64,000 nucleotides of DNA from an uncultured delta proteobacterium (GTDB lineage Bacteria; Desulfobacterota; Binatia; UBA9968). The stretch's first letter is position 1. The number at the start of each line of letters is the position of its first letter. The position numbers were made by a program, and so were the translations under genes. This document shows, piece after piece, positions 10,799 through 47,227 of this stretch. The DNA is taken from NCBI GenBank assembly GCA_963840855.1, contig CAWJBB010000065.1, forward strand, positions 32,001-96,000, given 5' to 3'. A model generated the notes under the pieces. The model ran no database searches and was not told the DNA's origin. It worked only from the letters and a program-made list of their open reading frames with translations.

Positions 10799-10919
10799 AT
10801 AAAGCCAGCGCGCGGTTCGAGATACAACGTCAAGTTCCGGAAGGACATTGAACCCAGATTCCGCAGTCGCGATCGCCGCAAAGAGCGAGGCGAACCCTTC
10901 CATAGCGAAGGTCAACGCA

Positions 10920-13214
10920 ATGCAAACGGCAAGGAATAAAAAAGTCAAACCGCGGAGCTTTACTTCAATCGGCAAACCGGCGCCCAAAATCGAGGGGCTG
11001 CAAAAAGTTTCCGGCACAGCGCTCTATACGGCGGATAATCTGATTCCCGGAACAATTTGGGGCAAAGTTTTGCGCAGCCCCTATGCTCACGCCCGTATCG
11101 TCCGCGTGGACGCTTCACGGGTAAAATCACGGCCAGGGGTCATGGCCGTTATCACCGCGCTGGATATCCCCGACCTGTTGACCGGACGCCGGCTGCGCGA
11201 CATGCCGATGCTGGCGCGCGATCGCGCCCGTTTCATCGGCGAGAAAGTGGCGGTGGTGGCAGCAGAGGACCGCAATATTGCGGAAGAGGCGGCCCAACTG
11301 ATCGAGGTGGAGTATGAGCCGTTGCCGGCGGTGTTCGATCCGCTGGTCGCTGTCACCGCGGGGGCGCCGCAGCTTCATGAAAAGCTCAAGGACTATCAGG
11401 GGCTGCCGAAACTCGCCTCTTCAATCAATAATGTATACTCGCATGACGAGTGGCGTATTGGCGATGTCGAGCGGGGGTTTCGCGAGTCCGATCAAATTTT
11501 CGAGGATACGTTCACGACGCAGCATGTTCATCAATCGTATCTGGAGCCCCATTCGAGCGTGCTATCCATAGACAAACACACCGGCTCCGTCCTTGTCTGG
11601 GTGAGCAACAAGGCTCCGTACCAGACCAAGCAAAGTCTTGCGCACGCGATTGGCGTCCCCGCCGAAAAAATCGTCATCCACGTCTCTGCGATAGGCGGTG
11701 ACTTTGGCGGTAAGGGTGCGCTCATGGACCTTCCCCTCTGTTATTTCCTCGCTGAGCGGACGGGCCGGCCGGTGCGGATGATCATGACTTATACCGAAGA
11801 GCTCATGGCGGGAAATCCTCGGCACGCGGCGGTTATCGTCGTGAAGACGGGTGTTAAAAAAGATGGAACGATTATGGCGAGACAGGTCAGGGCTTTTTGG
11901 AATGGCGGCGCCTATGGCGCGATGAAGCCGATTCCGTCGGTGAACTTGCCGGGCGCCGTCAAAGCCGCCGGCTCCTATCGTATTCCAAACGTGAAGATCG
12001 ACTCCTACGCGGTTTACACCAACAGTGTCCCCTGCGGTCATTTCCGCTCTCCGGGAATGGTACAACTGGTTTTTGCCGGCGAATCCCAGATGGATATGAT
12101 CGCCGAATCGCTGCAGATCGATCCTCTCGAGATTCGAATCCGCAACGCTCTTCAAGACGGCGATCCGACGCCGGGGGAGAACAAGCATGGCCTGATCGAC
12201 GTTAAGTGCCGGGATGTGCTCGAGTCGGCCGGCGAGGTTTCCAGATGGAAGACGTTTAGAAAAGCACCTCATGTGGGCCGCGGGGTTGCGCTATCCTATC
12301 GCAACGTTGGCATCGGCGACGCCAATGCGCGATTGAGTTTAGGTACCGACGGCATCGTCTCGTTATTGATCACCTACGCCGACACCGGCACCGGCGCGCA
12401 TACGATCCTTTGTCAGATGATTGCCGAGGTCTTGGACATTCCGTTAGATCGAGTGAGATTGGAAGTAGGAACAACGGACTCTTTCCGCTCCGAATCCGGC
12501 ACTGGCGCCAGCCGTGTGACCTTTGTGTTAGGACAGGCTGTGTTGAAGGCCGTCGACCAGTTAAAGGCCCTGCTGCGCCAGCGTGCCGCGAAAATGCTCG
12601 GCGTATCGGCCGACGGGATCGCGATCAAAAATGGCAAGGCGGCCGTGGAAGGCCGTAGCGCGCCATCTTTGTCTCTAGCTCAAATGGCCGCCGCTGCCGC
12701 AGCCGAAGGCGAGCGTCTCGAGGTGGAAAGCTATTACGAAGCCACTGAGACGCCCCCGGAAGGAGTATTCACTGCCTGCGTCGCCGAGGTGTATGTCGAC
12801 ACGGAGACCGGGCAAGTCCACTTACGGAAACTCAATACGGTTCATGACGTTGCGACGATTCTCAATCCCGTCGGACACCAGGGACAGATCGACAGCGGTA
12901 TCATGCAAGGGGTGGGTTATGCTCTCACCGAAGAAATGGTGATGGCGGATGGGCAAGTTACGACCCTGAGCCTTGGCGACTACAAGATACCGAACATCAA
13001 GGATATTTCCGCCTTGCAAACGACCCTCGTCCGAGGCGATGTCGGCGCGGCGCCGTTCCAAAGCAAGGAGATCGGCGAAAGCGCCATTTCCCAAGTCGCG
13101 CCGGCGATCGCCAACGCCGTTTATGACGCGGTGGGCGTGCGCATTAAGGATCTGCCCATTACGGCCGAGAAAGTTTTCCGCGCTTTACAGGAAAGTCGCG
13201 CTCGCGCGTCGTAG
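10920..13214 (+). CDS. Second xanthine dehydrogenase-family molybdopterin-binding large subunit
   Basis: LRSPYAHA, HQSYLEPH, IGGDFGGKG, GHFRSPG loop, GTGASR, GQIDSG..QGVG, SKEIGE. ATG 10920 preferred over TTG 10848. Confidence 0.9.
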   Translation: MQTARNKKVKPRSFTSIGKPAPKIEGLQKVSGTALYTADNLIPGTIWGKVLRSPYAHARIVRVDASRVKSRPGVMAVITALDIPDLLTGRRLRDMPMLARDRARFIGEKVAVVAAEDRNIAEEAAQLIEVEYEPLPAVFDPLVAVTAGAPQLHEKLKDYQGLPKLASSINNVYSHDEWRIGDVERGFRESDQIFEDTFTTQHVHQSYLEPHSSVLSIDKHTGSVLVWVSNKAPYQTKQSLAHAIGVPAEKIVIHVSAIGGDFGGKGALMDLPLCYFLAERTGRPVRMIMTYTEELMAGNPRHAAVIVVKTGVKKDGTIMARQVRAFWNGGAYGAMKPIPSVNLPGAVKAAGSYRIPNVKIDSYAVYTNSVPCGHFRSPGMVQLVFAGESQMDMIAESLQIDPLEIRIRNALQDGDPTPGENKHGLIDVKCRDVLESAGEVSRWKTFRKAPHVGRGVALSYRNVGIGDANARLSLGTDGIVSLLITYADTGTGAHTILCQMIAEVLDIPLDRVRLEVGTTDSFRSESGTGASRVTFVLGQAVLKAVDQLKALLRQRAAKMLGVSADGIAIKNGKAAVEGRSAPSLSLAQMAAAAAAEGERLEVESYYEATETPPEGVFTACVAEVYVDTETGQVHLRKLNTVHDVATILNPVGHQGQIDSGIMQGVGYALTEEMVMADGQVTTLSLGDYKIPNIKDISALQTTLVRGDVGAAPFQSKEIGESAISQVAPAIANAVYDAVGVRIKDLPITAEKVFRALQESRARAS

Positions 13215-13269
13215 GGCGCGAGCCGCTTTGAGAATTGCGTTGGCAGTTCGCATTGCCGAGGAGGTAACG

Positions 13270-14220
13270 ATGATCCCGATGATTGTCCTATCGCTCTGCT
13301 GGTTCTTGCTCTTTCCATATCTCGCGACAGCTCAGCCGCTGAAGGAACTTCGCATCGGTTCCAGCGACGTCACCGTCAGCAACTTGTGCACGTTTTACGC
13401 GCGGGATCGAAAATATTTCGAAGCCGAAGGCTTTGACGTCAAGATCATCATCATCAAAACAGAAGCGGCCCTGGCCGCGTTGGGGGTCGGAGATCTCGAT
13501 TATTCGACCTTGAGCACTTCGTCTATTGAAGCCACGCTCAAAGGAATGCCGTTGCGTCTGATCGCCGTGACGAACCGGCAACCTTTGCTAGGTTTGTTGG
13601 TTCGCAAGGGAATCAATAACGTGTCGGAGCTGCGCGGCAAGAAATTATCGATCAGTTCTTTCGGCGGCGCGATTTACGGCGCCGCGGTGTATTTACTCAA
13701 GAACCACGGGCTTAGACCAAAGGAGGACGTTGTTATACTGGCGGGAGGTTCCAACTCGGCGCGCGCTGCCGCGCTTAAACAGGGCGCGGTGGATGCCGCG
13801 CTCTTGAGTTCTCCGGATGACATAAGAGCCGCCGGAGAAGGGTTCCGTATCTTGCTTGACGTTGGCAACGATTATCGGCTGCCGTGGGGCGGCGTCAGCA
13901 CGACCCTGGGGAAAATTCGCGGCAATGGCTCTGAAGTCGAAAAGGTTCTGCGTGCTGTTCTGCGCGCCACCAGGGCGATTACCGATCCGCACCATAAGGA
14001 TGATGTGACGGGGTGGATAGGGAAATTTTTCAAGCTCGATCGGGCCATGTCCGAAGAGTTCTATCGCAGGCTTGTTCCCTCTCTAAGCCCTACCGGGTTC
14101 GTGGAGCGTGACAAAATCAAGCTGGTGATCGACAACGCTGTCGAGCGCGGCTTGACCGACAAGCCTCTCGATCCGGATGCGGTGACGGACTTTTCCATCG
14201 CAAGGCAACTGCGTTTCTAA
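13270..14220 (+). CDS. ABC-type solute-binding protein, NMT1/THI5/SsuA-like
   Basis: RBS GGAGG, signal peptide, YFEAEGFDVKII, ELRGKKLSISSFG, ARAAALKQGAVDA. Confidence 0.85.
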   Translation: MIPMIVLSLCWFLLFPYLATAQPLKELRIGSSDVTVSNLCTFYARDRKYFEAEGFDVKIIIIKTEAALAALGVGDLDYSTLSTSSIEATLKGMPLRLIAVTNRQPLLGLLVRKGINNVSELRGKKLSISSFGGAIYGAAVYLLKNHGLRPKEDVVILAGGSNSARAAALKQGAVDAALLSSPDDIRAAGEGFRILLDVGNDYRLPWGGVSTTLGKIRGNGSEVEKVLRAVLRATRAITDPHHKDDVTGWIGKFFKLDRAMSEEFYRRLVPSLSPTGFVERDKIKLVIDNAVERGLTDKPLDPDAVTDFSIARQLRF

Positions 14221-34424: not shown

Positions 34425-35570
34425 TCATTCCAGGAGCTTCGCCTTTTGAAACCTTTCAATCAGAGTACTCTTGCCTGAGTTCTGGCGCTGCAGCGCGCCC
34501 ATACGAAATTTGAAATCGGAGCCCTTGCCTTTTAGCGCGGCGAGATCATGCAAATCTTGAAGGAGCGATACCGCCTGGTCGTATCGCTTCGGTTGCTTGG
34601 TGGCAATGAGCTTATCGACCGTCGACCAGAGATCGTTCTCCTTGCCGGCGAGTGATTCGAGCCGCTGCTTTCGCGCTTCAGCTTCGGCTCGCTCGCGCCT
34701 GGCCTTTTCTCTCGCGCACTGCTCAGCCTCCTTCCTTTTCCGCTCCGCCGCTATGGTCTCCGCACGTGTGCGGATCTCACCAGCCGTCCTCCCCGGCCGC
34801 TCGTCCGGCCGCACTGCGCCGCGTATCTCGAAGATCGCACGCTGCCGGACCTCGGCCGACAAGTGCGCGGCGTCGCCGTCGATCAGCCTCGTGACAATCG
34901 CGTCTTTCTCAGCGCTCGAAAGTGCTCGAACCCACTCACCGATTTCGTCCCCGGAAAGGACTGGAGATTCCTGGTGAGCACTACGCTCCGCTGCTGCTGA
35001 AATGAGATCGGGATCGATGCCCAAGAATTCGGCGAGACAATCAAGAGAATCACTCAGGTCACCGAGTCCCGGCGGCACAGGAGGCTCAAGAACGTCGTCG
35101 GTGACTTCTTCGAATTGCACGGCAAGCAGCCAGCCAAGGTACAGAGCGCGGTGGTCGCCGCGCATCAAGTCGGAGCGTATTGGCACAAGCGACGCCAGCC
35201 GGCTCTTTTCGCCCTCCCATTGGTAACCCTCGAGCTCAGCCTCGAAGGACAGCACGATATAGTCATCCTTCTGGCGATAGGAAAAATTTCCGTCCTGGGA
35301 GTAGGCTGCTACGGTCTTCGGATCAAGCAGTTTCTGTGGTAATCGCAGCATGAACCGGCGGGACCCCCAGTTAGCAAAATAGAGGAAGGCATCGAAATAC
35401 CGCTCCATCCACTGGCTCGGATTCCCTTTGAAGTCGCCCCAGTTATATTCGTTAACGAAGCTGTAGGGAGTGATCTGGGCGCGAGAAGAGAAGGCTCTCA
35501 GCTGCGACGTCTGTTCTTGTGTCAGCGGCCGGTCCAACGCCTGGAATTCGTAGTACTGGTATTCGCTCAT
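34425..35570 (-). CDS. Conserved hypothetical protein (MSEYQYYEF family), 381 aa, helical C-terminus
   Basis: MSEYQYYEFQALDRPLT...LRAFSSRAQIT..SFVNEYNWGDFKG...YFDAFLYFANWG; intact ORF with RBS; function unknown. Confidence 0.8.
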   Translation of the reverse strand: MSEYQYYEFQALDRPLTQEQTSQLRAFSSRAQITPYSFVNEYNWGDFKGNPSQWMERYFDAFLYFANWGSRRFMLRLPQKLLDPKTVAAYSQDGNFSYRQKDDYIVLSFEAELEGYQWEGEKSRLASLVPIRSDLMRGDHRALYLGWLLAVQFEEVTDDVLEPPVPPGLGDLSDSLDCLAEFLGIDPDLISAAAERSAHQESPVLSGDEIGEWVRALSSAEKDAIVTRLIDGDAAHLSAEVRQRAIFEIRGAVRPDERPGRTAGEIRTRAETIAAERKRKEAEQCAREKARRERAEAEARKQRLESLAGKENDLWSTVDKLIATKQPKRYDQAVSLLQDLHDLAALKGKGSDFKFRMGALQRQNSGKSTLIERFQKAKLLE

Positions 35571-35586
35571 TGAATCCTCAACTCCG

Positions 35587-36015
35587 TCATCTCTTTTTTC
35601 CGGCGATGCGGCTTCGCCCTTTACTTGCCGCACTCCTGTGTCGGCTCTTGGGGTGTGCTGGAACCCTAGGAAGATAAGGTTTGACGCCGAGCCATTTTCG
35701 GTAGGCAGCTACATATCGAGCGGCTCTCGATTTTTCCGGAAAGACCACGTCGGCTGCTCCGACAAGATGCACCAAACCATCCGCACGGCGGCACTTCGCT
35801 GTTAGCCCGCGCCGTTCGTTGCCATCGTAATCGATCTCGACGACTGCGACAGGCTCCCCGATGACGAACCCATTGGCCGGTAAGGAGATCTCGTCCTCAA
35901 GGACCTGCCGAAAGGCCCACAGTTGCTCGTCCTCGCCATACGCATCGACGGTGATCTCTTCAATCAGCTCATCCAGACCCGCAAGGTCGTTGTCTCGTCG
36001 GCCTTTGCGGCTCAT
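35587..36015 (-). CDS. CcbP-like ('calcium-binding' family) acidic protein
   Basis: LDELIEEITVDAYGEDEQLWAF...GEPVAV...YVAAYRKWLG. Confidence 0.68.
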   Translation of the reverse strand: MSRKGRRDNDLAGLDELIEEITVDAYGEDEQLWAFRQVLEDEISLPANGFVIGEPVAVVEIDYDGNERRGLTAKCRRADGLVHLVGAADVVFPEKSRAARYVAAYRKWLGVKPYLPRVPAHPKSRHRSAASKGRSRIAGKKR

Positions 36016-36225
36016 CGCCCCGCCTCGGCGCAAGGATTGCGCTTTTTTCTCGATAACGCGGACAAGACTTCCACGGGAGTGATCGCCGAGGACAACAGGT
36101 CGTGCCGAGCTAGCAAGGACACAATTTCAGCCGAGCCCCGCGCTCTGACATAGCGCTTCACCAATAGGTCCCCGTTTCAGAGCCGGTCGCAGCAAGCCCT
36201 CCTCGACACACGTTTCAGCTTTTTT
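36012..36225 (-). pseudogene. Collapsed vapB-vapC (antitoxin-PIN) remnant
   Basis: VEEGLLRPALKRG (antitoxin-tail-like) joined to LLVKRYVRARGSAEIVSLLARHDLLSSAITPVEVLSALSRK (PIN interior lacking the N-terminal D motif and the C-terminus). Confidence 0.55.
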
Positions 36226-36409: not shown

Positions 36410-36587
36410 GTGCTCAACGCCTTTCGGCATCTCAGATTCTTTCACACGTTTCTGTGGATTCGGACTCAGGAGAACATCCAGTGCTCAACGCCTTTCGGCA
36501 TCTCAGATTCTTTCACGCTAATATCAGCGCGGCCACCGGACTGAAGTATCAGTGCTCAACGCCTTTCGGCATCTCAGATTCTTTCAC
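36410..36587 (-). CRISPR. CRISPR array: 3 identical 36-bp repeats, 2 spacers of 35 bp
   Basis: Repeat on +: GTGCTCAACGCCTTTCGGCATCTCAGATTCTTTCAC at 36410, 36481 and 36552. Likely transcribed from the minus strand (ends GATGCCGAAAGGCGTTGAGCAC), with the leader between cas2 and the array. Confidence 0.95.
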
Positions 36588-36833: not shown

Positions 36834-37136
36834 TCACGCTGCACCAACGATTCGAAATTTCGGTTCTTCCTGCAGGTACTCATTTCTGGTGTTTCTCGCA
36901 ATAACCTTCGCGTGGCAGCCCGCGCATAATCCCGCAATCATCAAGCTATCTTCGTCTGAGAGTTCTTTTTCGAGCTCCCAGCGCATTCGTTCTAACTCCC
37001 GCCTGGTCAGCCGGCATTCAAAAATCGAATACTGCAAGCTTTTACCGTAGCCCCTTAAAGGTTTGTACGATCGTCGCCATCTCTTCGGGTCACGGATGTC
37101 GTAACAAATCAGATACAAGAATTTTTCCTCGGCCAT
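36834..37136 (-). CDS. cas2: CRISPR-associated endoribonuclease Cas2
   Basis: YLICYDIRDPKRWRR...GYGKSLQYSIFEC. Confidence 0.95.
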   Translation of the reverse strand: MAEEKFLYLICYDIRDPKRWRRSYKPLRGYGKSLQYSIFECRLTRRELERMRWELEKELSDEDSLMIAGLCAGCHAKVIARNTRNEYLQEEPKFRIVGAA

Positions 37137-37140
37137 AGCG

Positions 37141-38774
37141 TCACCTCAATCGCATCCTGGCAAATAACCCCGACTCGCCCGTCCATTCCTTTTCGAGCAA
37201 CCGGCACTCAAGTTCGATCAACCGTGCATAGGACAGTGAATAACCCGTGACGGGATGCTTCCACTGATCGTCTTTTCGTCGCTCATAAACCTCGATTGCT
37301 TTCTGGCGTCCCTTGTCGCTCAACCAAACCTGAATTCCCGCATACGTAAAGTCATCGTCAGGGTTCCACTGCTGGCGATTCACTGAAGCCACCAGCGGCA
37401 TATCCCAAAGCGGAACGCGAAAGAGTTCCATCAGATCGAGCGCGAGCGGGTGAGCAGCCGAACGCGGCGTATGAAAAAACCCAAAAGAGGGTTCCAAAGC
37501 GACCGCAATAATGGCCTGCATGACATCGCGATAGAGTAGAGCGTACCCGAAACTGAGTAAGGCATTAAAACAGTCCCGCGGCGGCCTACGGTTACGTCCG
37601 TGGAACTGCAAACGTTCATCCAGATCGTCTCTCAACAGCATTGGAAGAGCGGAAAAGTAAAGCCTTCCTGCTTCTCCCTCAAATCCTCGAAGGCTATCGA
37701 TTCCTTCCGCTTGATTCATTGACCTCAACGCCGTCCGAATTCCTCCAAGGGCATCGTCGACCTCAGCACCACGACCTTTTTCTCGGGAGGCACGCAGCAG
37801 GAAACCCAACTGGCTAGCCGAGCGCGCGGAAGCAAGCTTCTTAGCCAACTTGAAAGAAAAGCCCGGCTCACGAAGTGCTTCATATTGACGAATGCGCCGC
37901 TGCACCGGGCTGGCGCCCGCCATAATGCTTCCGACGTAACGTCCGCCTCCCGTCATCCAATGGACTCCGACCTCTTGATGAGCACATAGGTGAATGGCTT
38001 GAGTCGTATCTGCGCACTCCCGTGTAATACCAATTCGCCGACCTCGCGGATGGGCAAGGTCTCCTTGGTCTTGTCGGTTCGAACTATCGCGAGAGTATCC
38101 CCGGCCCGCGTCACCCGGGCTCCGTGATCAATCACATGAATCGTTTGGCGCTCTTTGTCTTTCGGAAACAAACGGACCGGAGCCCAGTCGCGGTCCCGAG
38201 CTAGACGTTCTTCCTCAGGCAGGCATACCCGAGCGAGGGAACAGCGGAGACAAAGGCGCTCATTGTCCGTTACCGGCGGCCGTTGCACGGATTGCCTCAA
38301 CTCACGCACTCGCTGGACTGCCCAGTGAACTTTCTCCCGAGCCGGTTGATCCACCGCAAGCCGCACGGTCGCATTATCGCCATGGTACCGGATTCTCGCT
38401 TCTTCGATAGCCGTGCCGGTGTGCTCTTCCAGGAGCATCGTGTATGCATAGACCTGAAGCCGATCACTCGGCCAAGCCTCCGCGCCGTCGTCCCCCTTAC
38501 GCGACCGCCCGCGCTTGTGCTCGTAAGGAATAAGCTGCCCGTTCCTTCTGCGGAGACAGTCAACCTTCCCTTTCAATCCCAATTTTTCGCTCTCCAAAAC
38601 CAGGCTCACCATCTCGCCCTCTTCAGCCGACAATTCTTCATGGAGGCGACGTCCCGCATAGACCGATGCGTCGGCAACGCGGATTTCCTCGACTTCTTCC
38701 AGATAGAAAAGCCGCTCGCAGTACAGCAGCGCGTGCAGCGCCATGACGCGGATAAGAGGCTCAGATTCACTCAC
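37141..38774 (-). pseudogene. cas1: Cas4-Cas1 fusion (MYXAN-type) with a 1-nt deletion frameshift at about 38007
   Basis: Cas4: YCERLFYLEEVE, GKVD, PYEHKRG, CLRCSLARVCLP. Cas1: LRGFEGEAGRLYF, RNRRPPRD, NALLSFGY, GFFH, LDLMELFR. Adding one base restores HGSAQI-TTQAIHLCAHQEVGVHWMTGGG. Confidence 0.9.
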
Positions 38775-39508
38775 TTCTTTTTTCTGCCTTTTGTAACCGA
38801 TAGTGTCTCTGAGGGCGGAGCAATAAGTGTCCAGGCTTCTTCAGGGACGGCGGCTACAATGTCTTTTGTGGGCGCGTATAGGTACGCCACAGTGCGGCTC
38901 ATATCGGCACGATCAATCCATGCCGTTAGTCGACAGCGTCCCGTTATGGGGCCTAGTTCCCCCGTCAACCGTCTGTACCAAAACGCTGGTCCAAGGACGG
39001 GCTCCTCTCGAAGCACATCAATCATAAAGTTGTTGTCACCCAAGAACGGAATGCCATAACGTGGCCGACCCTCGCACAAGGACCGCCCGCCCTGACGTAA
39101 ACCCTCCCTAACTTGCTCCTCCAAACGTTCGTTTCCTCGAAGACACAAATACGCATCTAGCCCGGAAAGGAACTCGCGTTGAACAGGTTGAATGTTGTAC
39201 TTAGCTCCTTTGGTTTCGGGCGCGCGATCCTTACTCATAGCTCCAACCGGGTAGTTGTGAAGTTGCTGATATATGCTTTGAGTCTCTGGAAAGGTAATGG
39301 CCCCAAGCGCTACTTCCACCCGCGGTAAGCCGAATTTCATTAATGTCATGGTAGCCTGACCGTCGTCGTACCGAGACTCAATTCCTGCAACGTTCAGAAT
39401 CAGTCCGTAAGCGGCACTTGGTGTAATAAATGGGGCAGTAGGGCGATACGATCCGGCAGTAAACGTGCGAAAGGCGCCGAAGGGGGCCTTAAGACGGAGG
39501 TGCAGCAT
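38771..39508 (-). CDS. cas5: Cas5 (DevS/Cmx5-like)
   Basis: LKAPFGAFR...TPSAAYGLILNVAG, QQLHNYPVG, KYNIQPVQREFL, PFLGDNNF. Confidence 0.9.
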   Translation of the reverse strand: MLHLRLKAPFGAFRTFTAGSYRPTAPFITPSAAYGLILNVAGIESRYDDGQATMTLMKFGLPRVEVALGAITFPETQSIYQQLHNYPVGAMSKDRAPETKGAKYNIQPVQREFLSGLDAYLCLRGNERLEEQVREGLRQGGRSLCEGRPRYGIPFLGDNNFMIDVLREEPVLGPAFWYRRLTGELGPITGRCRLTAWIDRADMSRTVAYLYAPTKDIVAAVPEEAWTLIAPPSETLSVTKGRKKK

Positions 39509-40517
39509 TAGCGGTCTCCTCCCATTCTCTTTCTTTTTCAAGAAAGCCGGTCCCGCAGACTTTCCTTGCAACGGCGCTGAGGGCCTCATTAGCCATCCTG
39601 AAAAGGTTCAGACCCTTTGTTTTCAGGTTCTTATTTCTGTCCTGATTAAGTGTATTCTTTACGATCAGGCCTCCAATATAGAATTCACTACCTGGATAGT
39701 CGCCATGAAGTATGCCGTCCACTACTTCAGGAAACCCCCCGTCCGGTTTAAAACCGTAGGTCTCATAGCCTGCTACCAAAGAGTCCGTAAGTCGTATAAC
39801 GATACTTGCGGGAGCCATCTCAAAGTAGCTGCGCGCGTGGTTGCCTGCCACGTCGTTCAGTTCAGAGACGGCCCGCAGCAAATGACGAAGCCAATCTTTA
39901 TGTTGTTCCCCGCAGCTTGAATATGCTTTGCCATCTGGGGCTTTCGCACCATCCGCCGGCTTCCCTTTATCGTCCAGGCCGCAGTCGATAACATTCAGTG
40001 CAAAAGGGTACTGGAACGCAGTAACAACAGTTTCACGGTGAAGAAGTGCAGAAGTCGTTGCATTTTGCCACGGGCTCTTCTCGTTCTTTATTGTCAGCGG
40101 AGATTGAGTAAAAAGCGCATCATGCCTATACGGCTCGACCGATCTTGCGAGATTCATGCGTAGCACAGAGTCACGTTTGAATTGAAAGTGGCGATCTTTG
40201 ACCACTTTATCTGGAATCTGTCCACGAGCGGCAACGAAGTAGCCAAAGAAGAAATCGTCGGCAAATTTTTCGGGGAATGGATAGTCTTCGAATCGAACAG
40301 CGAGCTGCTCTTCGTTATGAAGTCGCTCCCGGTTACGGGGCAAACCATATCTAGAAAGAGTTTCTCGAAGCGCGTTGCGCATCGCCTCTGGCGAGATTAT
40401 GGGATACTCGAACCGTCCGTAGGTTACCTTTTGAATGACACTTCGATTTTCCTCGGACTCCCCACGATAGTTCGCTGACGGGGCCGGATATGTCAAAACG
40501 GTTGCGAAAATGTTCAT
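39489..40517 (-). CDS. cas7: Cas7 (DevR/Cst2-like)
   Basis: APSANYRGESEENRSVIQK, ISPEAMRNALRE, KRDSVLRMN, ALLHRE..TAFQYPFALN, VAGNHARSYF. Confidence 0.9.
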   Translation of the reverse strand: MNIFATVLTYPAPSANYRGESEENRSVIQKVTYGRFEYPIISPEAMRNALRETLSRYGLPRNRERLHNEEQLAVRFEDYPFPEKFADDFFFGYFVAARGQIPDKVVKDRHFQFKRDSVLRMNLARSVEPYRHDALFTQSPLTIKNEKSPWQNATTSALLHRETVVTAFQYPFALNVIDCGLDDKGKPADGAKAPDGKAYSSCGEQHKDWLRHLLRAVSELNDVAGNHARSYFEMAPASIVIRLTDSLVAGYETYGFKPDGGFPEVVDGILHGDYPGSEFYIGGLIVKNTLNQDRNKNLKTKGLNLFRMANEALSAVARKVCGTGFLEKEREWEETANAAPPS

Positions 40518-40539: not shown

Positions 40540-40941
40540 TTAGATTCTTGAGAAACTCGACAGCGCCAGCATTGCAAGCGCTTTGACTTCTTCCCACCGC
40601 ACATCGCTCAGGATCGCCTCGGCCACGGCTTGATATTCAGCATCCGGCAAGTAGTGCGGGACCGAGCAAATAGTCCCAGTGAAGTAGGACACAAAATCCT
40701 CCTTTGCGTGGCAAGCGCGAAACCTCAAAAAGGCATCCGTGCAAACCCTTTCACGTGCTTCGCGGTACCTCTGCGGCACGTCTATCCTTTCCCGATTAGT
40801 GCGGGAATCTGTCACTTTCTTATCTTTGAAGTCGTCCCACTTTATACCTGATTTAGTCTCTGTTTTTCGAAACACGTAAGCTTGTACGAGCTTATAAACT
40901 CGCTCTGTAATGTCACTCTCGACAGATGAAACGCTTGTCAT
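40540..40941 (-). CDS. cas11: Stand-alone small subunit Cas11 (matches the Cmx8 C-terminal helical domain)
   Basis: Own RBS AGGAGG and ATG; YREARERVCTDAFLRFR...DFVSYFTGTICSVPHYL...WEEVKALAMLALS resembles Cmx8 C-termini. Confidence 0.72.
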   Translation of the reverse strand: MTSVSSVESDITERVYKLVQAYVFRKTETKSGIKWDDFKDKKVTDSRTNRERIDVPQRYREARERVCTDAFLRFRACHAKEDFVSYFTGTICSVPHYLPDAEYQAVAEAILSDVRWEEVKALAMLALSSFSRI

Positions 40942-40958
40942 CTAAGCCTCCTTTCACC

Positions 40959-42185
40959 TCATTCGGCTTCAAAGCCTCTCCTACTATCTGTTGAAAACCA
41001 ATCTGCCTTTGAACCAATAAACCGCTGGGAGTTATTGCGAGAGAAAAGTTGGTCGAATCTGTGATACCAAGGTTCTCCGCGCAGCAAATTAAAAATTCTT
41101 TGGCGCTTGAATAATGGATCACGGTAGAATTCCCGAAGACTCTCATATTTTTCTAACTGGCTGGGTGTCACGGACAGTCGGTCCGCACCGAGCATGCGAA
41201 TATTATTCCCTTGCTTTTGCAGGTGGTAAATATCGACACCAGCAATGCTATACGCCAGGGCGCCTCTTCCAGCCCTAGCTTTTGCAAGACGAGTAAGATG
41301 GTGAAGATATTCCAGGCCTCCCTCCTGAGGAAGAGAAATGACCGCCTCCCTTGGACGATAACCGGCTAACTCCGATTTCAATTGAGCGGTGATATCCGGA
41401 AAATCTTGGACGAATCCATCAAGGTCGGACACATCAGGTACAACAAGCACATAACTACTCGTAAATTTGCGCCCACCCTCACGGTCGATTACTTGGGGAG
41501 CATAGACACCCATCACCGCAGGCCAAAAGTGAAGCAGAAAAACCTCGTCTGCCTTACCACGGAAAGGAACCCGTTCGGCACTGGCGGCCTGAGCCCCAAT
41601 GAAGATAGAACTCGCGATATTTACGGTATAAATCTCGTTTTGTGCCCGGCGCTGCTGGAACTTTTGCAACTCCCTCCATGTGGCTTCCGCTTCGCTGACC
41701 GTTCCCCTCGCCGCACGTTGTTCGTACGGAATACGAGTCCTATGGACGCCTCGCAGTGTTTCCCAAATTGCCTCTCGCCAAAGTTTGAGCCAAACCTGAG
41801 GCATACCGAAAGCGGCAAGAAACGCCGCCTTGGGGACGATTTGAGGGTATATAAAAACCGTCATCTCTTTGCCTGTCTTCGGATCAGCTCGTTTTTCCTC
41901 GCGCAATGGTTTGATTTCCCTTTTCTTCTTATCCTTCCTTTTACGCGGGTATGCTCTTTCCTCTGTGGCCGCGTCATAAAGGTCGTTAAAAGTAGTTGCA
42001 AGAGACTTCCTTGTCAAAGAAACTGTAACCGTGGCATCTGCGCGAACGGATATTTCAGGCACTACCTTAATCTTTCGCCGCCGCATCGACTCGACGAGGA
42101 CCAAGAACCCAGCAAGGCCCGCGCGGTGTTGTGCAGTGGGAAGCACAAACGGGTCGTAAGTAAGCTCAATCACTTCTTCAGCCAT
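40959..42185 (-). CDS. cas8: Cas8 large subunit (Cmx8-like) ending before the C-terminal domain
   Basis: LPTAQHRAGLAG, WLKLWREAIW, IGAQAASAERVPF, FLLHFWP, VLVVPDVSDL, YRPREAVISLPQEGGL. Confidence 0.88.
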   Translation of the reverse strand: MAEEVIELTYDPFVLPTAQHRAGLAGFLVLVESMRRRKIKVVPEISVRADATVTVSLTRKSLATTFNDLYDAATEERAYPRKRKDKKKREIKPLREEKRADPKTGKEMTVFIYPQIVPKAAFLAAFGMPQVWLKLWREAIWETLRGVHRTRIPYEQRAARGTVSEAEATWRELQKFQQRRAQNEIYTVNIASSIFIGAQAASAERVPFRGKADEVFLLHFWPAVMGVYAPQVIDREGGRKFTSSYVLVVPDVSDLDGFVQDFPDITAQLKSELAGYRPREAVISLPQEGGLEYLHHLTRLAKARAGRGALAYSIAGVDIYHLQKQGNNIRMLGADRLSVTPSQLEKYESLREFYRDPLFKRQRIFNLLRGEPWYHRFDQLFSRNNSQRFIGSKADWFSTDSRRGFEAE

Positions 42186-44492
42186 GTTGACTTCTCCTCA
42201 TCCAAAAAACCAAAATCAGGATGGTATTGGTCGACCGGTGCTTCGCGAAGGTATCGGCCAAGTTTTGCATTTTCTCGGGCGAAACGCCTTGGTACCGGAA
42301 CAACATAGCCATCCGCCTCTGATTCCCTAGCGTTACGTTTGAGCAAATACTCGTCAATGTCAGAATCAAGCACGCAGTCGACGGTGAAATCGTCCCCTTC
42401 GCGAAACGACTCATCTTGAGCCATTGCGTAGGGTCCGGCATCCAAAAATCCTATGTAACCGCCTTCGATGAAGGGATCTGTCACCTGCATAGCCGCCAAG
42501 TAGTTTGCGAGATCGGCGTGGCTAAACTGCTTTTTACCCGCTGACAACGTTTCAACGAAGATCTTTCCTGCCTCTATTTCTTCTTTATCGTATGGTTTTA
42601 CGCCGCTGGGCAAGTAAACATAGACCTTTCCAATACGCCCATTTTTCGGAACGGGTTCCCTGCAACAACGACCCATACGCTGAATAATAGAGGCGACAGG
42701 AGCAATCTCCGTGATAAGAACGTCTGCGTCCAAATCTAAGCTCATTTCACAGACCTGCGTGGCAACGACAACGGTGCCCTTATCGAACTCTTGGACCACG
42801 TCGCCTGTCACAAAGTTTGAAACGACTGTGGTAGCAAAATACTCTGCCGGAATCAGCGAGATGTGCTTTAAGATCCCGCGCTCTTTTCTGACAGCGTGAG
42901 ACCGTATTAACCACCCAAAGCACTTTCTTACCGCTGGCAATCGCATCTTTAACGATGTCCAATAGCCTGTTTTTCTCAACAACGGAAAGGTTGTAACGCT
43001 CGCATTCCGACTGCCGTCGTAGATCTTCAAACGCCTCCTTGGAATCTGGAAATACCTGCAAACCACAGCCATCACGAAGTGCCTCTAGCCGGTCGGATGG
43101 AAGACTGGCGGTCATGCAAAGAACTGGGATATTAAAAAACTTTAGGAACCATTCAAGCGCCGTAAACATGCTGCGGTCAAAGCTGTGGACCTCGTCGACT
43201 ACCACAACACTGTCAGCAAGAACTGGCAAAAGACAAAGAGATGCGTACTGATTCCGCACGAAAGCCAAGAAACTATCCACAGTTGCGCTGAAAACCCGTT
43301 TCGGCCAATAGCCAAGAGCGAAAAGTCGTTCCTGGACATGATAGTCACCGCCGTGGCGAGGATCGCCAGGATTTGGAAACATGCCAGCGAGATCGTACGC
43401 GGCAGTGCCATGTAACAGCGTTGCGTCTTCTCCTCCAGCCCATGAGACATAATCACGAAAACCTTCGGTCGCCGTAGAACGAGTCGGGTAGAGAAAAATC
43501 ACCCGCGATGCTGGTCGCTGACGCAATTGGTTTTTGATCCAATTCCATGCTGCAAGTGTTTTTCCCGTTCCGCATCCCGAAAGAAGCAGAGCACGCGTGC
43601 CTAGTTCTCCAGCAGCGATCTGAAAGTCGTGCCATTCGAATGCACAATCTGATTTTCTTTCAATTTCACTAATTCTCTGCCGAATGATTTTCTTTTCGAC
43701 CCAATCTGCTGTCAGTGGGTCATATTCAAAACAGTTGTTTATCCACTTTTCGAGTGAATGTCCTTCGCGGATCAGCGCCGAGCCTGCCGAGTCAGCGGCG
43801 ATAAGGCCTGCTTTCACAGCAACCAGAAGACGGTGTCGCTCTGAACCTTTTCGGAGTTTGCGTTTGAAATTATGCATTGCACGACCCAAATCCCCAGAAG
43901 GTCCTTTCCGTGGATCGACGTCGTGCTCGAATGACCACAACCGATCATAAGCAGACAAATCAGGGGGCGGGGCGCCAACGATCGGCTCTGCGAGTCGGAG
44001 GCATTTGACGAAATCTGCGTCTTGGGTAAACACATTAAAAGTGTCAACTCCAGGAAGAAGTCTCTTGGCAAATTCTTGGTCGTTCACCTTTAAGTGGTGA
44101 GAAACAACAGCCGATAGGACAGTTTCAAAGTCGATCCCAGCGGAACCGTCTCGACACAACCAATCGCGGATTGGCTCAAGGTAAAGCACTAACGCTGAAA
44201 GATGTTCGTGACGGATAGCTTGCTGACCTCGGTGGCGGAGGGTAGCTTGAAATCCGTCGTTAGCTTTGCCCAGATCATGAAATAATGCGGCCAACTGCAG
44301 GTTCGTTAAGAATTTGGGTAATTGACCTGTGGTTAGGCCGAAAAATCGGAGCCATTCTGCTCCCAGTCGGGTTGGTTGGCTAGGTGAGCCAAAGAGGTAT
44401 TGAACGGCATAGCTGACTGTCGTCACGTGCTCGGAGAGACTAATTTGTTGCCCTTTGATAGGGCTCTTTGCAAGAATGACTTCAGTCACCAT
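42170..44492 (-). pseudogene. cas3: Cas3 HD-nuclease/helicase with a frameshift at about 42800
   Basis: LFHDLGKAN, GCGTGKT, LYPTR, VVDEVH, MTAS, VVNTV, YHSRF; motifs ATQVCEMSLDLDAD and QRMGR lie in another frame after KLCDR. Confidence 0.9.
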
Positions 44493-45073
44493 TACCTCCG
44501 CCACGGTACAAACATCCCACAGCCCATATGTCTGCGACCGCCGAGCCCATTTTCTTGCAACCGTAAAGATTCTTCGGCATCGAGTTCTAACGCTGCTAAT
44601 TCAAATCCCACGACCTGTTTCTCCTTGACTCGTAGGGTCCGCCGTTCGCCCACCTTGATTTCTGCCTCTATTCCAAGTTTTTCAAGCTGTCGCTTGGCTG
44701 CATCCAAGAAAGCTGGAGGCTCCATAAATCCCTTGATCGTGACAAGGCGCGAGTAAAGTGAGGCACGCGAACGCAGAAGGCGAACCTCTGGGACGCCGAC
44801 CTGGAGAATGTGACTGTCTATGTCTAATCTTTCGCCGGCCAATTTCAAAAATTCTCCGATGCGCTCGCTTTCCAGTCTTATGACTAATCGCGATGAATCT
44901 CTCAGAATTAATTCGCCATTGCCGGAATACGTGCCCCGGATAGGTTGCACGCCAATGTTCTTCGCTCCATGAATCGCCGGCAAAAGTCGGCTGATCGCCG
45001 AATAGAGCGCGTATCCGTGGTCCACAAGCACCTTGCTGCCGGTCAATCTAAACGCCAAATCCACGTAGGGCAT
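44492..45073 (-). CDS. cas6: Cas6 (Cmx6, MYXAN-type)
   Basis: VDHGYALYSAIS, SRLVTIKGF, SLRLQENGLGGRRHMGCGMF. Confidence 0.93.
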   Translation of the reverse strand: MPYVDLAFRLTGSKVLVDHGYALYSAISRLLPAIHGAKNIGVQPIRGTYSGNGELILRDSSRLVIRLESERIGEFLKLAGERLDIDSHILQVGVPEVRLLRSRASLYSRLVTIKGFMEPPAFLDAAKRQLEKLGIEAEIKVGERRTLRVKEKQVVGFELAALELDAEESLRLQENGLGGRRHMGCGMFVPWRR

Positions 45074-45417: not shown

Positions 45418-45967
45418 TCAGCGTTTTCCGTAACGCGCCGCTCTTTCCTTAGCCAAAAAGCCGATCTTCCGCTTGTTGGGCTGCGGTGGGGTCATCATCT
45501 GGCGTATCGCGTCGAAGACCACCTTGAACTGAGCATCGTATTTCCGTTCCAGCGTTTCGAGCTTGATTGCCAGATCTTTGTGAGTAGCCAATATTTCCCT
45601 TAACCGCACAAAGGCTCTCATGATTTTCAATGTTAACAGCAACGGCTCGTTTACTCCGTAGAACGCTGGAAAGCATGGCAACCCCTTGTTCGGTAAATGC
45701 GTAAGGAAGGTATTTCCGATGTCGTCCCCGGCCCGTTTCTAAGGTCACAATTTGTGACCTTAGAGCAACGAACTCCTCGTTTGTTAGCTGAAACATGAAG
45801 TCGGCGGGGAACCGGTCTTTATTGCGTTTAACGGCTTGGTTGAAAACTTTGGTCGGCACTTCGTAAAGCTCTGCCAGGTTGGCATCCAGCATTACTTTCT
45901 GACTGCGGATGAGAAAGATGGACTTCTCGATCCGCTCGGAAGGAATGATTTGATCTTTATCGGGCAT
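45418..45967 (-). pseudogene. ORF6N (KilA-N-like) DNA-binding protein, frameshifted by one extra A at 45624-45627
   Basis: [61 protein letters not shown]; continues [12 protein letters not shown]...FDAIRQMM...KRKIGF in the other frame. Confidence 0.88.
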
Positions 45968-46241: not shown

Positions 46242-47227
46242 TTACGGACTGGAACCGAGCACTTTCCTGGCCTCTTCTCTCACTTTTTGTCTCACCGCCT
46301 CAGGTCCCACGACCGTCACCTCACCCCCAAAGCTCAATATCCATCCGACCAGCTCGTCGTTGTCCGCGACTTTCAAGATCATTTTGAGCCGGCCGTCCTT
46401 CAAGAGTTTGGTTTCCTGGCTCGGGTGCCAGCTTTTGTCTTTGACCCAGGCGGAGGCTTTTTGGAAAACAGCAGCTCGACTTCGATGCGGCGGCCGCGCA
46501 TGACGTTCAGCGCGTCCTGGACGTATTCCTGAACGTTGAACCCGAGCGGCAATTGGTAGGGATGGTCGGTGTGCGCGATCGTGCGGATTCGTTCGACGGC
46601 GAACAGCCGCACGTCTTTGCGCAAGTGACAGTAGGCGATCAAATAGAGCCCGCCGGCGGCGAACCAGAGATGATACGGATCGACTTCGCGCCGTCCGGTG
46701 TTGTCGCGCGAGGCTGAGTAGTAGCGCATTTGCGCCGTGCGCCGTTTGTCGATGGCTTGGGAAATGAGATCGACGGTTTGCCGGTGCTCGCGGTAGCTCT
46801 TGTGCGGGCCGAGGCCGACTGTAAACATCTGTTCCATGGACCGCACGTACTCGTGGCCCTGGGGTGGCAGGGCCGCGGATGCTTTAGACAGGGCGGAGTT
46901 GAGAGACTCGGAAATCTCTGTGCCTTCGAGCGGTTTTAGAAGATTGCGGCTAAGGAGCAATGCCATCAGCTCGGTGGCGGAAAAGCCCAGCGCGGGAATA
47001 GCGCGAAAACCTTCCATCAATCGCCAGCGGGTCTGGCCGTTGTGACGTTCGGTGATGACGGGAAACCCGACCGCTTCCAGGGCCTCTAAATCGCGCCGCA
47101 CTGTGCGGGCGTTTTTCGGGAAATCTTCAGGTACGGATTCGACAAGTGCCTGCAGAGTCAGGCCGTTCGCGCCTTCGAGACGGCGCAATAGATGCCACTG
47201 CCGGGTGATCTGGTCGTTTCGCGGCAT
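46242..47227 (-). pseudogene. HTH-WYL-WCX transcriptional regulator (PafBC/DriD-like), frameshifted by a 1-nt deletion in an A run at 46458-46462
   Basis: RTVRRDLEALEAVGFPV (wHTH), REVDPYHL...LYLIAYCHLRKDVRLFAVERI (WYL); WCX tail AWVKDKSWHPSQ...ELVGWILSFGGEVTVVGPEAVR lies in the shifted frame, ending TAA 46242. Confidence 0.88.

Follow-up and report, generated by a model that had tools for sequence, protein, structure and literature searches.

The window analysed here, a stretch of 64,000 nt from an uncultured delta proteobacterium of the Binatia (assembly GCA_963840855.1, contig CAWJBB010000065.1, positions 32,001 to 96,000), carries a type I-B (MYXAN) CRISPR-Cas operon in which the gene for the large subunit of the Cascade complex, cmx8/cas8b, is divided in two. 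On the minus strand, an open reading frame (ORF) of 408 aa at 40959..42185 is predicted to encode a large subunit that lacks the Cas11-like domain at its C-terminus, and an ORF of 133 aa at 40540..40941 is predicted to encode that domain as a gene of its own, a stand-alone cas11b. The arrangement is best read as a real and selected fission of cmx8/cas8b at the site where fused relatives would start the internal translation of Cas11b, and from the comparisons described below we assign this reading a probability of about 0.9. A true fission had also been proposed in a sequence-only reading of the same DNA, and it is upheld by conserved junctions, by the ratios of nonsynonymous to synonymous substitution rates (dN/dS) and by contigs that bridge the junction. 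Far from being confined to this genome, the layout has been conserved and is found widely among environmental bacteria of several phyla.

In the 5' to 3' direction of the minus strand, the sequence at the junction runs GAA GCC GAA TGA ggtgaaAGGAGGcttag ATG ACA. The TGA stop codon of cas8b lies at 40959-40961 and the ATG start codon of cas11b at 40939-40941; by direct reading, the 17-nt spacer between the two genes (40942..40958, minus strand) contains the Shine-Dalgarno (SD) sequence AGGAGG (40947-40952) at a distance of 5 nt from the ATG. Within the 30 nt before this ATG the cas11b frame has three stop codons, TGA, TGA and TAG, the last of which abuts the ATG. Since the two ORFs are in different reading frames, they cannot be joined by one base change or by a single-base insertion or deletion (indel); a deletion of 20 nt, if precise, would join them. 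At the DNA level, cas11b has the signals of a gene of its own (the ATG, the AGGAGG 5 nt upstream and the in-frame stops just before the ATG), and these are kept in 43 other loci. The canonical nesting of type I-B, with cas11 in frame inside the 3' part of cas8b, is not found in the window. All junction details of the sequence-only reading (408 aa, TGA, 17 nt, AGGAGG, 133 aa, three stops) were recovered, and its statement that no single indel or substitution can fuse the two ORFs agrees with the different frames and the three stops.

Both ORFs match one family profile collinearly, which is more than chance would give. Of the 537 positions of TIGR04413 (Cmx8), the 408-aa protein accounts for 3-404 with an E-value of 1.1e-110 and 370.9 bits (cut-off 150), and the 133-aa protein for 421-536 with an E-value of 9.7e-32 and 110.3 bits. 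In Pfam, the large ORF corresponds to Cas8b_N and positions 1-92 of Cas8b_C and the small ORF to positions 105-227 of Cas8b_C, while the PADLOC Cas8b model of 510 positions is matched at 2-387 and 398-509, respectively. The large protein further aligned with residues 7-420 of the 551-aa Cmx8 chain 8ip0_J (E-value 1.9e-59), and the small one with residues 433-540 of the same chain. Residues 6-129 of the small protein were also aligned with residues 6-113 of the 124 residues of 8h67_M, a chain deposited as Cas11b (E-value 1.5e-9). Its length of 133 aa and this match would fit the small alpha-helical bundle expected of a Cas11 subunit. The comparison of both ORFs with full-length Cmx8 proteins, which had been suggested along with the proposal of a fission, thus identifies the small ORF as homologous to the Cmx8 C-terminus (TIGR04413, 8h67_M). 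None of the three profile libraries scanned gave a match of the small ORF to a Cas11 model of its own, and profile scans of the operon proteins gave no match to Cse2 or Csa5. According to the available passages of Lu et al. 2024 (PMC11096372), an internal ribosome binding site (RBS) in cas8b of Synechocystis PCC 6714 produces Cas11b, the C-terminal portion of Cas8b being identical to Cas11b. Because of this internal RBS and of the alignments to 8h67_M and 8ip0_J, the split in the window is located, within a few residues, at the internal Cas11b start of the Synechocystis system.

A junction of this kind could have been produced by recent pseudogenisation or by an assembly error, in which case a fused cmx8 would be broken here and the small ORF would be its leftover tail. 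This explanation draws on the state of the operon, in which cas3 and cas4-cas1 have frameshifting deletions that are not in relatives, and on the genome, an assembly of 93 contigs with a contamination of 8.27%. It is opposed by the identical stop, 17-nt spacer, SD and ATG in the loci L004, L084, L085, L086 and L087 as well as in contigs of three independent runs, and by the other clean junctions in more distant loci. The contigs originate from soil runs of three studies (X1, X3 and X7), belong to relatives of roughly 90-95% likeness and bridge the junction without an indel. The runs X1-X10, none of which is listed as RNA, each contain at most 9% of the sampled words; X1, X3, X5 and X7 were compared and hold mostly relatives of 85-95% likeness, and X5 includes a few near-identical pieces of 151 nt, none of which spans the cas8/cas11 junction. 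The closest long relative, L084 (85% nucleotide identity over 8.4 kb), has the identical junction and is split although its cas3 and cas4-cas1 are intact. The small ORF has a dN/dS of 0.13 in comparison with L004 and of 0.19 in comparison with L084, which likewise speaks against a decaying remnant. A broken gene or an assembly error is therefore extremely unlikely at this position, and the divided cas8b/cas11b arrangement is kept under purifying selection across a broad, multi-phylum set of loci.

The extent of the split layout was assessed at the level of proteins and of loci. A protein search with the small ORF, restricted to proteins of 73-233 aa, gave homologues in 99 clusters, all of which have Pfam Cas8b_C and 87 of which measure 125-147 aa and start with Met. 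Among the best 120 of the 581 matches of the large ORF, 89 proteins have a length of 395-460 aa, 20 have at least 500 aa and 11 are fragments; in the alignment, the short forms of the large subunit all stop in the linker just ahead of the first Cas11 helix. For one named pair, that of Nitrospira sp. SG-bin1, the locus tags are adjacent (A4E19_02210 and A4E19_02215). Eighty loci from species-representative genomes and 80 loci from metagenomes were fetched and classed with two purpose-built profiles. The genome loci comprised 71 fused forms, 6 'split' forms and 3 that were unclassifiable (no Cas11 match; contig or gene truncated). One of the six, L036 (5923-7727), is a fused cmx8 whose frame shifts within the Cas11 domain; unlike the clean splits, it is genuinely broken, so that five clean splits are left among the genome loci. 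The metagenome loci comprised 27 fused forms, 39 split forms (one of them, L106, ambiguous) and 14 contigs without the end of the N-terminal part.

With L036 and L106 excluded from the comparison of junctions, a clean split is present in 43 loci besides the window, each with an ATG behind a GGAGG-like site. The search for other loci with the same split, which the sequence-only reading had called for, was in this respect productive, and the rarity that this reading had implied does not hold in view of 43 other loci in several phyla and 87 stand-alone clusters of 125-147 aa. It had also named split forms already common in the subtype as a point that would refute it; such forms are common in sequence databases, though not in the searched literature. 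Over the 44 clean junctions, the window included, the distance between the two genes is 17 nt (n = 12), -4 nt with an ATGA overlap (12), -8 nt (13), 5 nt (3), 10 nt (2), 13 nt (1) and 16 nt (1). In a second split clade the cas8-cas11 spacer is 5 or 17 nt long with differing stop codons (L151, L152 and L157 vs L145, L146 and L159), and the junction has therefore still been evolving after fission. Named records with the split belong to Verrucomicrobia, Sumerlaeota, Vampirovibrionales, Chloroflexota and Archangium; Waddliaceae, Nitrospira, Bryobacteraceae and a cyanobacterium come in addition from protein names. A Cmx8 match was found in 0 of 36 genomes of the same family and in 1 of 24 genomes of the same order (G037, fused, with an open frame of 558 aa); with matches nearly nil in related genomes, the split is not traceable within the organism's own lineage.

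The junctions also bear on recoding, by which TGA read-through or a programmed frameshift would yield a full-length Cas8b-Cas11b protein and the split would be only apparent. The stop codon in the window is indeed TGA, and the overlapping stop and start codons of many relatives (-4 and -8) place both frames on one short stretch. However, read-through of the TGA in the window would give six residues and then another in-frame TGA (GGT GAA AGG AGG CTT AGA TGA, ending on the ATGA of cas11b), and the cas11 frame is closed by the three stops before its ATG. Moreover, the stop codon at the split junctions varies between TGA, TAA and TAG, so that no single reassigned codon fits. Judged by the stop codons and reading frames at the junctions, recoding is thus considered very unlikely, and two separately translated genes are the preferred interpretation.

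The fused relatives point to the origin of these two genes. In 91 of 98 fused relatives, an in-frame ATG is present in the linker at the start position of the split form, and 73 of these 91 have a strong SD-like motif at -16..-4 of this ATG, against 18 of 400 in-frame ATG codons taken as control from elsewhere in these genes. The linker ATG reads ATGA in 56 of the 91. The internal initiation site that McBride et al. (bioRxiv 10.1101/2020.04.18.045682) describe corresponds to this linker SD and ATG of the fused relatives. The C-terminus '...RRSA' of many split forms corresponds to AGG AGG TCC GCA, that is, to the SD read as codons. Because the cas8 frame of the window runs on to the ATGA of cas11b and because cas8 relatives of 413-415 aa terminate at this ATGA overlap, the 17-nt spacer is probably a secondary feature, created when a nonsense codon arose later, six codons ahead of an older stop in the ATGA overlap.

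In the proposed path, one indel upstream of the SD, in the poorly conserved linker, would move the cas8 frame onto the TGA of ATGA (the -4 class) and result in two translationally coupled genes. A compensating indel would restore the fused gene, and both kinds of event together would explain the repeated switches between split and fused forms on the tree. A subsequent nonsense codon would give rise to the 17-nt spacer of the window. With a strong SD of its own, Cas11b would be translated independently and probably in larger amounts than Cas8b, and would fill every Cas11-fold position in the Cascade belly, four positions by analogy with 8H67, in which they are occupied by one Cas8b C-terminal domain and three Cas11b. 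There Cas11b would support the non-target strand, and the 408-aa Cas8b would retain recognition of the protospacer-adjacent motif (PAM) and recruitment of Cas3.

Phylogenetic trees were used to count the changes between the two states. For 110 proteins whose state was taken from their length, a tree built on the N-terminal part requires at least 6 changes between split and fused forms, and well-supported branches force five of these. With 115 distinct sequences of locus-verified state (85 fused, 30 split), the number was 6, or 5 with L036 treated as a fused gene that is broken. In this second tree, a well-supported first split group of 21 rows including the window combines the junction types 17, -4, -8, 10 and 13 and encloses two fused forms, a second well-supported split group of 8 rows has 44 fused rows as its sister, and the lone split rows L080 and L101 are placed elsewhere. 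A single clade for the 29 split rows costs 216 log-likelihood units and was rejected in the approximately unbiased (AU) test with a p-value of 3.9e-8. As judged from these trees, the switching between split and fused forms is repeated, with at least five changes, and a single origin is rejected. We are inclined, with some reserve, to regard the Cas8b/Cas11b boundary of the Cmx8 family as an evolutionary toggle at which single indels have split and rejoined the two parts at least five times, the covalent Cas11-like domain being dispensable for the I-B Cascade.

The operon has the gene order cas6-cas3-cas8b-cas11b-cas7-cas5-cas4/cas1-cas2-array, and all its elements are located on the minus strand. 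The first gene, cas6 (Cmx6, 193 aa, 44492..45073), matched TIGR02807 cas6_cmx6 with an E-value of 5.3e-62 and 209.3 bits (cut-off 98.85) as well as Pfam Cas6. Upstream of cas6 are an ORF6N-domain gene at 45449-45967 and a WYL-domain/HTH regulator at 46400-47227, which may control transcription of the cas operon. The N-terminal piece of cas3 (42780..44504; cas3_HD, cas3_core), with the HD nuclease and the first part of the helicase, is a 574-aa ORF ended by a frameshift, and the C-terminal piece lies in another frame (42170..42800; cas3_core 273-349, Cas3-like_C_2 and the alignment to L084). The ORF listed for this second piece is 42170..43075, with the homologous portion below about 42800. Downstream of cas11b, cas7 (Cst2/DevR type, 342 aa, 39489..40517) matched TIGR02585 with an E-value of 1.5e-13 and 50.5 bits, below the cut-off of 72.75; its likely start, MNIFATV at 40517, was deduced from the translation, and its length equals that of cas7 in L084. 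The coordinates of cas5 (Cmx5/DevS type, 38771..39589) are those of the longest ORF, the true start being probably further in; the match to TIGR02586 (E-value 2.1e-28, 99.2 bits) is below the cut-off of 111.5 and that to TIGR02593 is above cut-off. The fusion gene of cas4 and cas1 is interrupted by a frameshift, with cas4 and the first part of cas1 at 37953..38774 (TIGR00372 above cut-off; cas1_MYXAN 1-66) and the remainder of cas1 at 37141..37956 (TIGR03983 cas1_MYXAN 76-347, 410.9 bits, cut-off 358). The 100-aa cas2 at 36834..37136 matched TIGR01573 above cut-off with an E-value of 1.1e-11. The CRISPR array at 36410..36587 consists of three identical 36-nt repeats and two spacers of 35 nt (0 matches in 100 shuffles). 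In contrast to these two spacers, the array of L084 is long, with many repeat matches at 10911-13323 of the L084 locus. Just past the array of the window, two minus-strand ORFs of 402 aa and 148 aa (34425-36033) have no Pfam match at an E-value of 0.001.

This setting is relevant for the interpretation that the truncated Cas8 serves as a decoy or in regulation, as an anti-CRISPR-like 'half Cas8', and not as the working large subunit, and that the small ORF has another role. Both genes occupy the usual place in a complete cas operon beside an array, and the neighbourhood is chromosomal, with clpB and dnaK. In addition, a search of the genome revealed no second, full-length Cmx8, the two matches being the two halves themselves. 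A decoy is hence scarcely credible, and a large and a small subunit of one Cascade are the favoured assignment of the two products.

Two further features, the broken cas3 and cas4-cas1 on the one hand and the secondary nature of the 17-nt spacer on the other, were absent from the sequence-only reading. Compared with L084, the counterparts of which are intact (cas3 as one 789-aa ORF and cas4-cas1 as one 544-aa ORF), cas3 of the window has a 14-nt deletion at about 42799-42801 that shifts the frame. The 14 nt are present in contigs of the runs X1, X3 and X7. A 151-nt piece from X5 equals the window over 128 nt up to 42799 and holds the missing 14 nt of cas3 in its loose end; since this piece is near-identical to the window and yet has the 14 nt, the cas3 lesion is either strain-level or an assembly error. 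In cas4-cas1, a 1-nt deletion relative to L084 is located at about 38007. Contigs of X3 and X7 have the extra base at 38006, and the two pieces, of 273 and 271 aa, together equal the 544 aa of the intact L084 gene. Either the interference and adaptation genes are decaying in this strain, which would fit an array of two spacers only, or the assembly is wrong at both deletion sites. The operon in this assembly may thus be inactive, unless the deletions in cas3 and cas4-cas1 are assembly errors. The cas8/cas11 split is independent of whether these deletions are real.

Several points weigh against a selected and repeatedly switched fission. The broken cas3 and cas4-cas1 together with only two spacers make the function of the system in this organism doubtful. 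The split loci are known from DNA sequence, and the stoichiometry of Cas11b and its docking beside a truncated Cas8b are modelled on a fused homologue of about 30% identity and are accordingly to be read as presumed. Split-form queries seeded all searches, and the share of split forms among the matches therefore overstates their frequency; the 5 clean splits among 77 classifiable loci in species-representative genomes are a fairer figure than the share in metagenomes. The trees were quick trees with a midpoint root and 35 of 112 inner forks unresolved, so that fission and re-fusion are not separable event by event, and the group used in the AU test was defined by the trait itself, with the test run after the tree was seen.

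In the available parts of PMC11899642, PMC13199841 (2026) and McBride et al., a separate cas11 is assigned to types I-A and I-E and none to I-B, I-C and I-D, and the available text of Makarova et al. 2011 (PMC3150331) describes I-B operons as lacking the small subunit, with no mention of a split form. The statement of the sequence-only reading that I-B systems normally make Cas11 by internal initiation agrees with the passages available of PMC11096372, PMC11899642, PMC13199841 and McBride et al. A published natural stand-alone cas11 of type I-B was not found in full-text searches; supplementary alignments may show split forms. As far as the searches reach, the split layout is common in databases and apparently not discussed in print for I-B.

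The finding is of moderate interest for the assembly, evolution, annotation and engineering of Cascade; the gain is incremental, and no new kind of system is described. Papers up to 2026, in the portions available, deny a stand-alone cas11 in I-B, I-C and I-D, and a sizeable lineage of Cmx8 breaks this rule at the internal start. It bears on two remarks left open in the accessible part of McBride et al., namely whether fusions revert to separate genes and whether nucleation of the Cas11 filament is a task of the fused C-terminal domain. If the toggle is true, the family would offer a test in nature of the 'nucleation' role proposed for the covalent Cas11-like domain. Annotation pipelines label the small gene 'Cmx8' or 'hypothetical protein', and as such labels coincide with the lack of a matching Cas11 model of its own in the three libraries scanned, split loci can pass for broken operons. 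For genome editing, natural pairs of Cas11b and a Cas8b without the C-terminal domain are ready-made compact two-gene designs.

Among known systems, a precedent for the curation of a Cas8-like protein in two parts is the Csx13 family, which is represented by the N- and C-terminal models TIGR03485 and TIGR03486, the latter (cas_csx13_C) with 152 positions and thus about the size of Cas11. Its description reportedly mentions a species with Csx13 divided between two tandem genes. Csx13 is a different family; TIGR03486 was unmatched in the genome, and neither ORF matched a Csx13 model. The closest likeness is to the I-B (MYXAN) Cascade of Synechocystis sp. PCC 6714 (8H67/8H7Q/8IP0), which shares the Cmx8/Cas8b family, the same other subunits and a repeat-spacer unit of 71 nt, and for which the available text of PMC11096372 gives the composition Cas8b1-Cas7b7-Cas5b1-Cas6b1-Cas11b3. 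Cas11b of Synechocystis is formed by the last ~124 residues of Cmx8, and the small ORF of the window starts there within a few residues. The two systems differ in that cas11b of Synechocystis is nested in the cas8b frame and the domain stays part of Cas8b, whereas in the window a stop codon and a change of frame intervene and Cas8b ends before the domain. The internal in-frame Cas11 described in the accessible parts of McBride et al. and, for Haloferax Cas11b, of PMC11899642 resembles the SD and ATG at the same boundary in 91 of the 98 fused relatives. McBride et al., in the text available, treat I-B as being without a separate cas11, whereas the Cmx8 family has both states, with at least five apparent switches. 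The layout is also similar to that of types I-E (cse1-cse2-cas7) and I-A (cas8a-csa5), in which, according to the available portions of PMC11899642 and PMC13199841, large subunit, small subunit and Cas7 follow in the same order and a helical subunit of about 15 kDa is translated independently. The I-E/I-A-like layout with a compact Cas8 that the sequence-only reading had recognised is accordingly present, with the order cas8-cas11-cas7 and a large subunit without the domain. The Cas11 families of I-E and I-A differ in having no significant sequence similarity to the small ORF of the window, and, unlike in these types, the separate gene of the window demonstrably stems from a fused form of one and the same family or is interconvertible with it.

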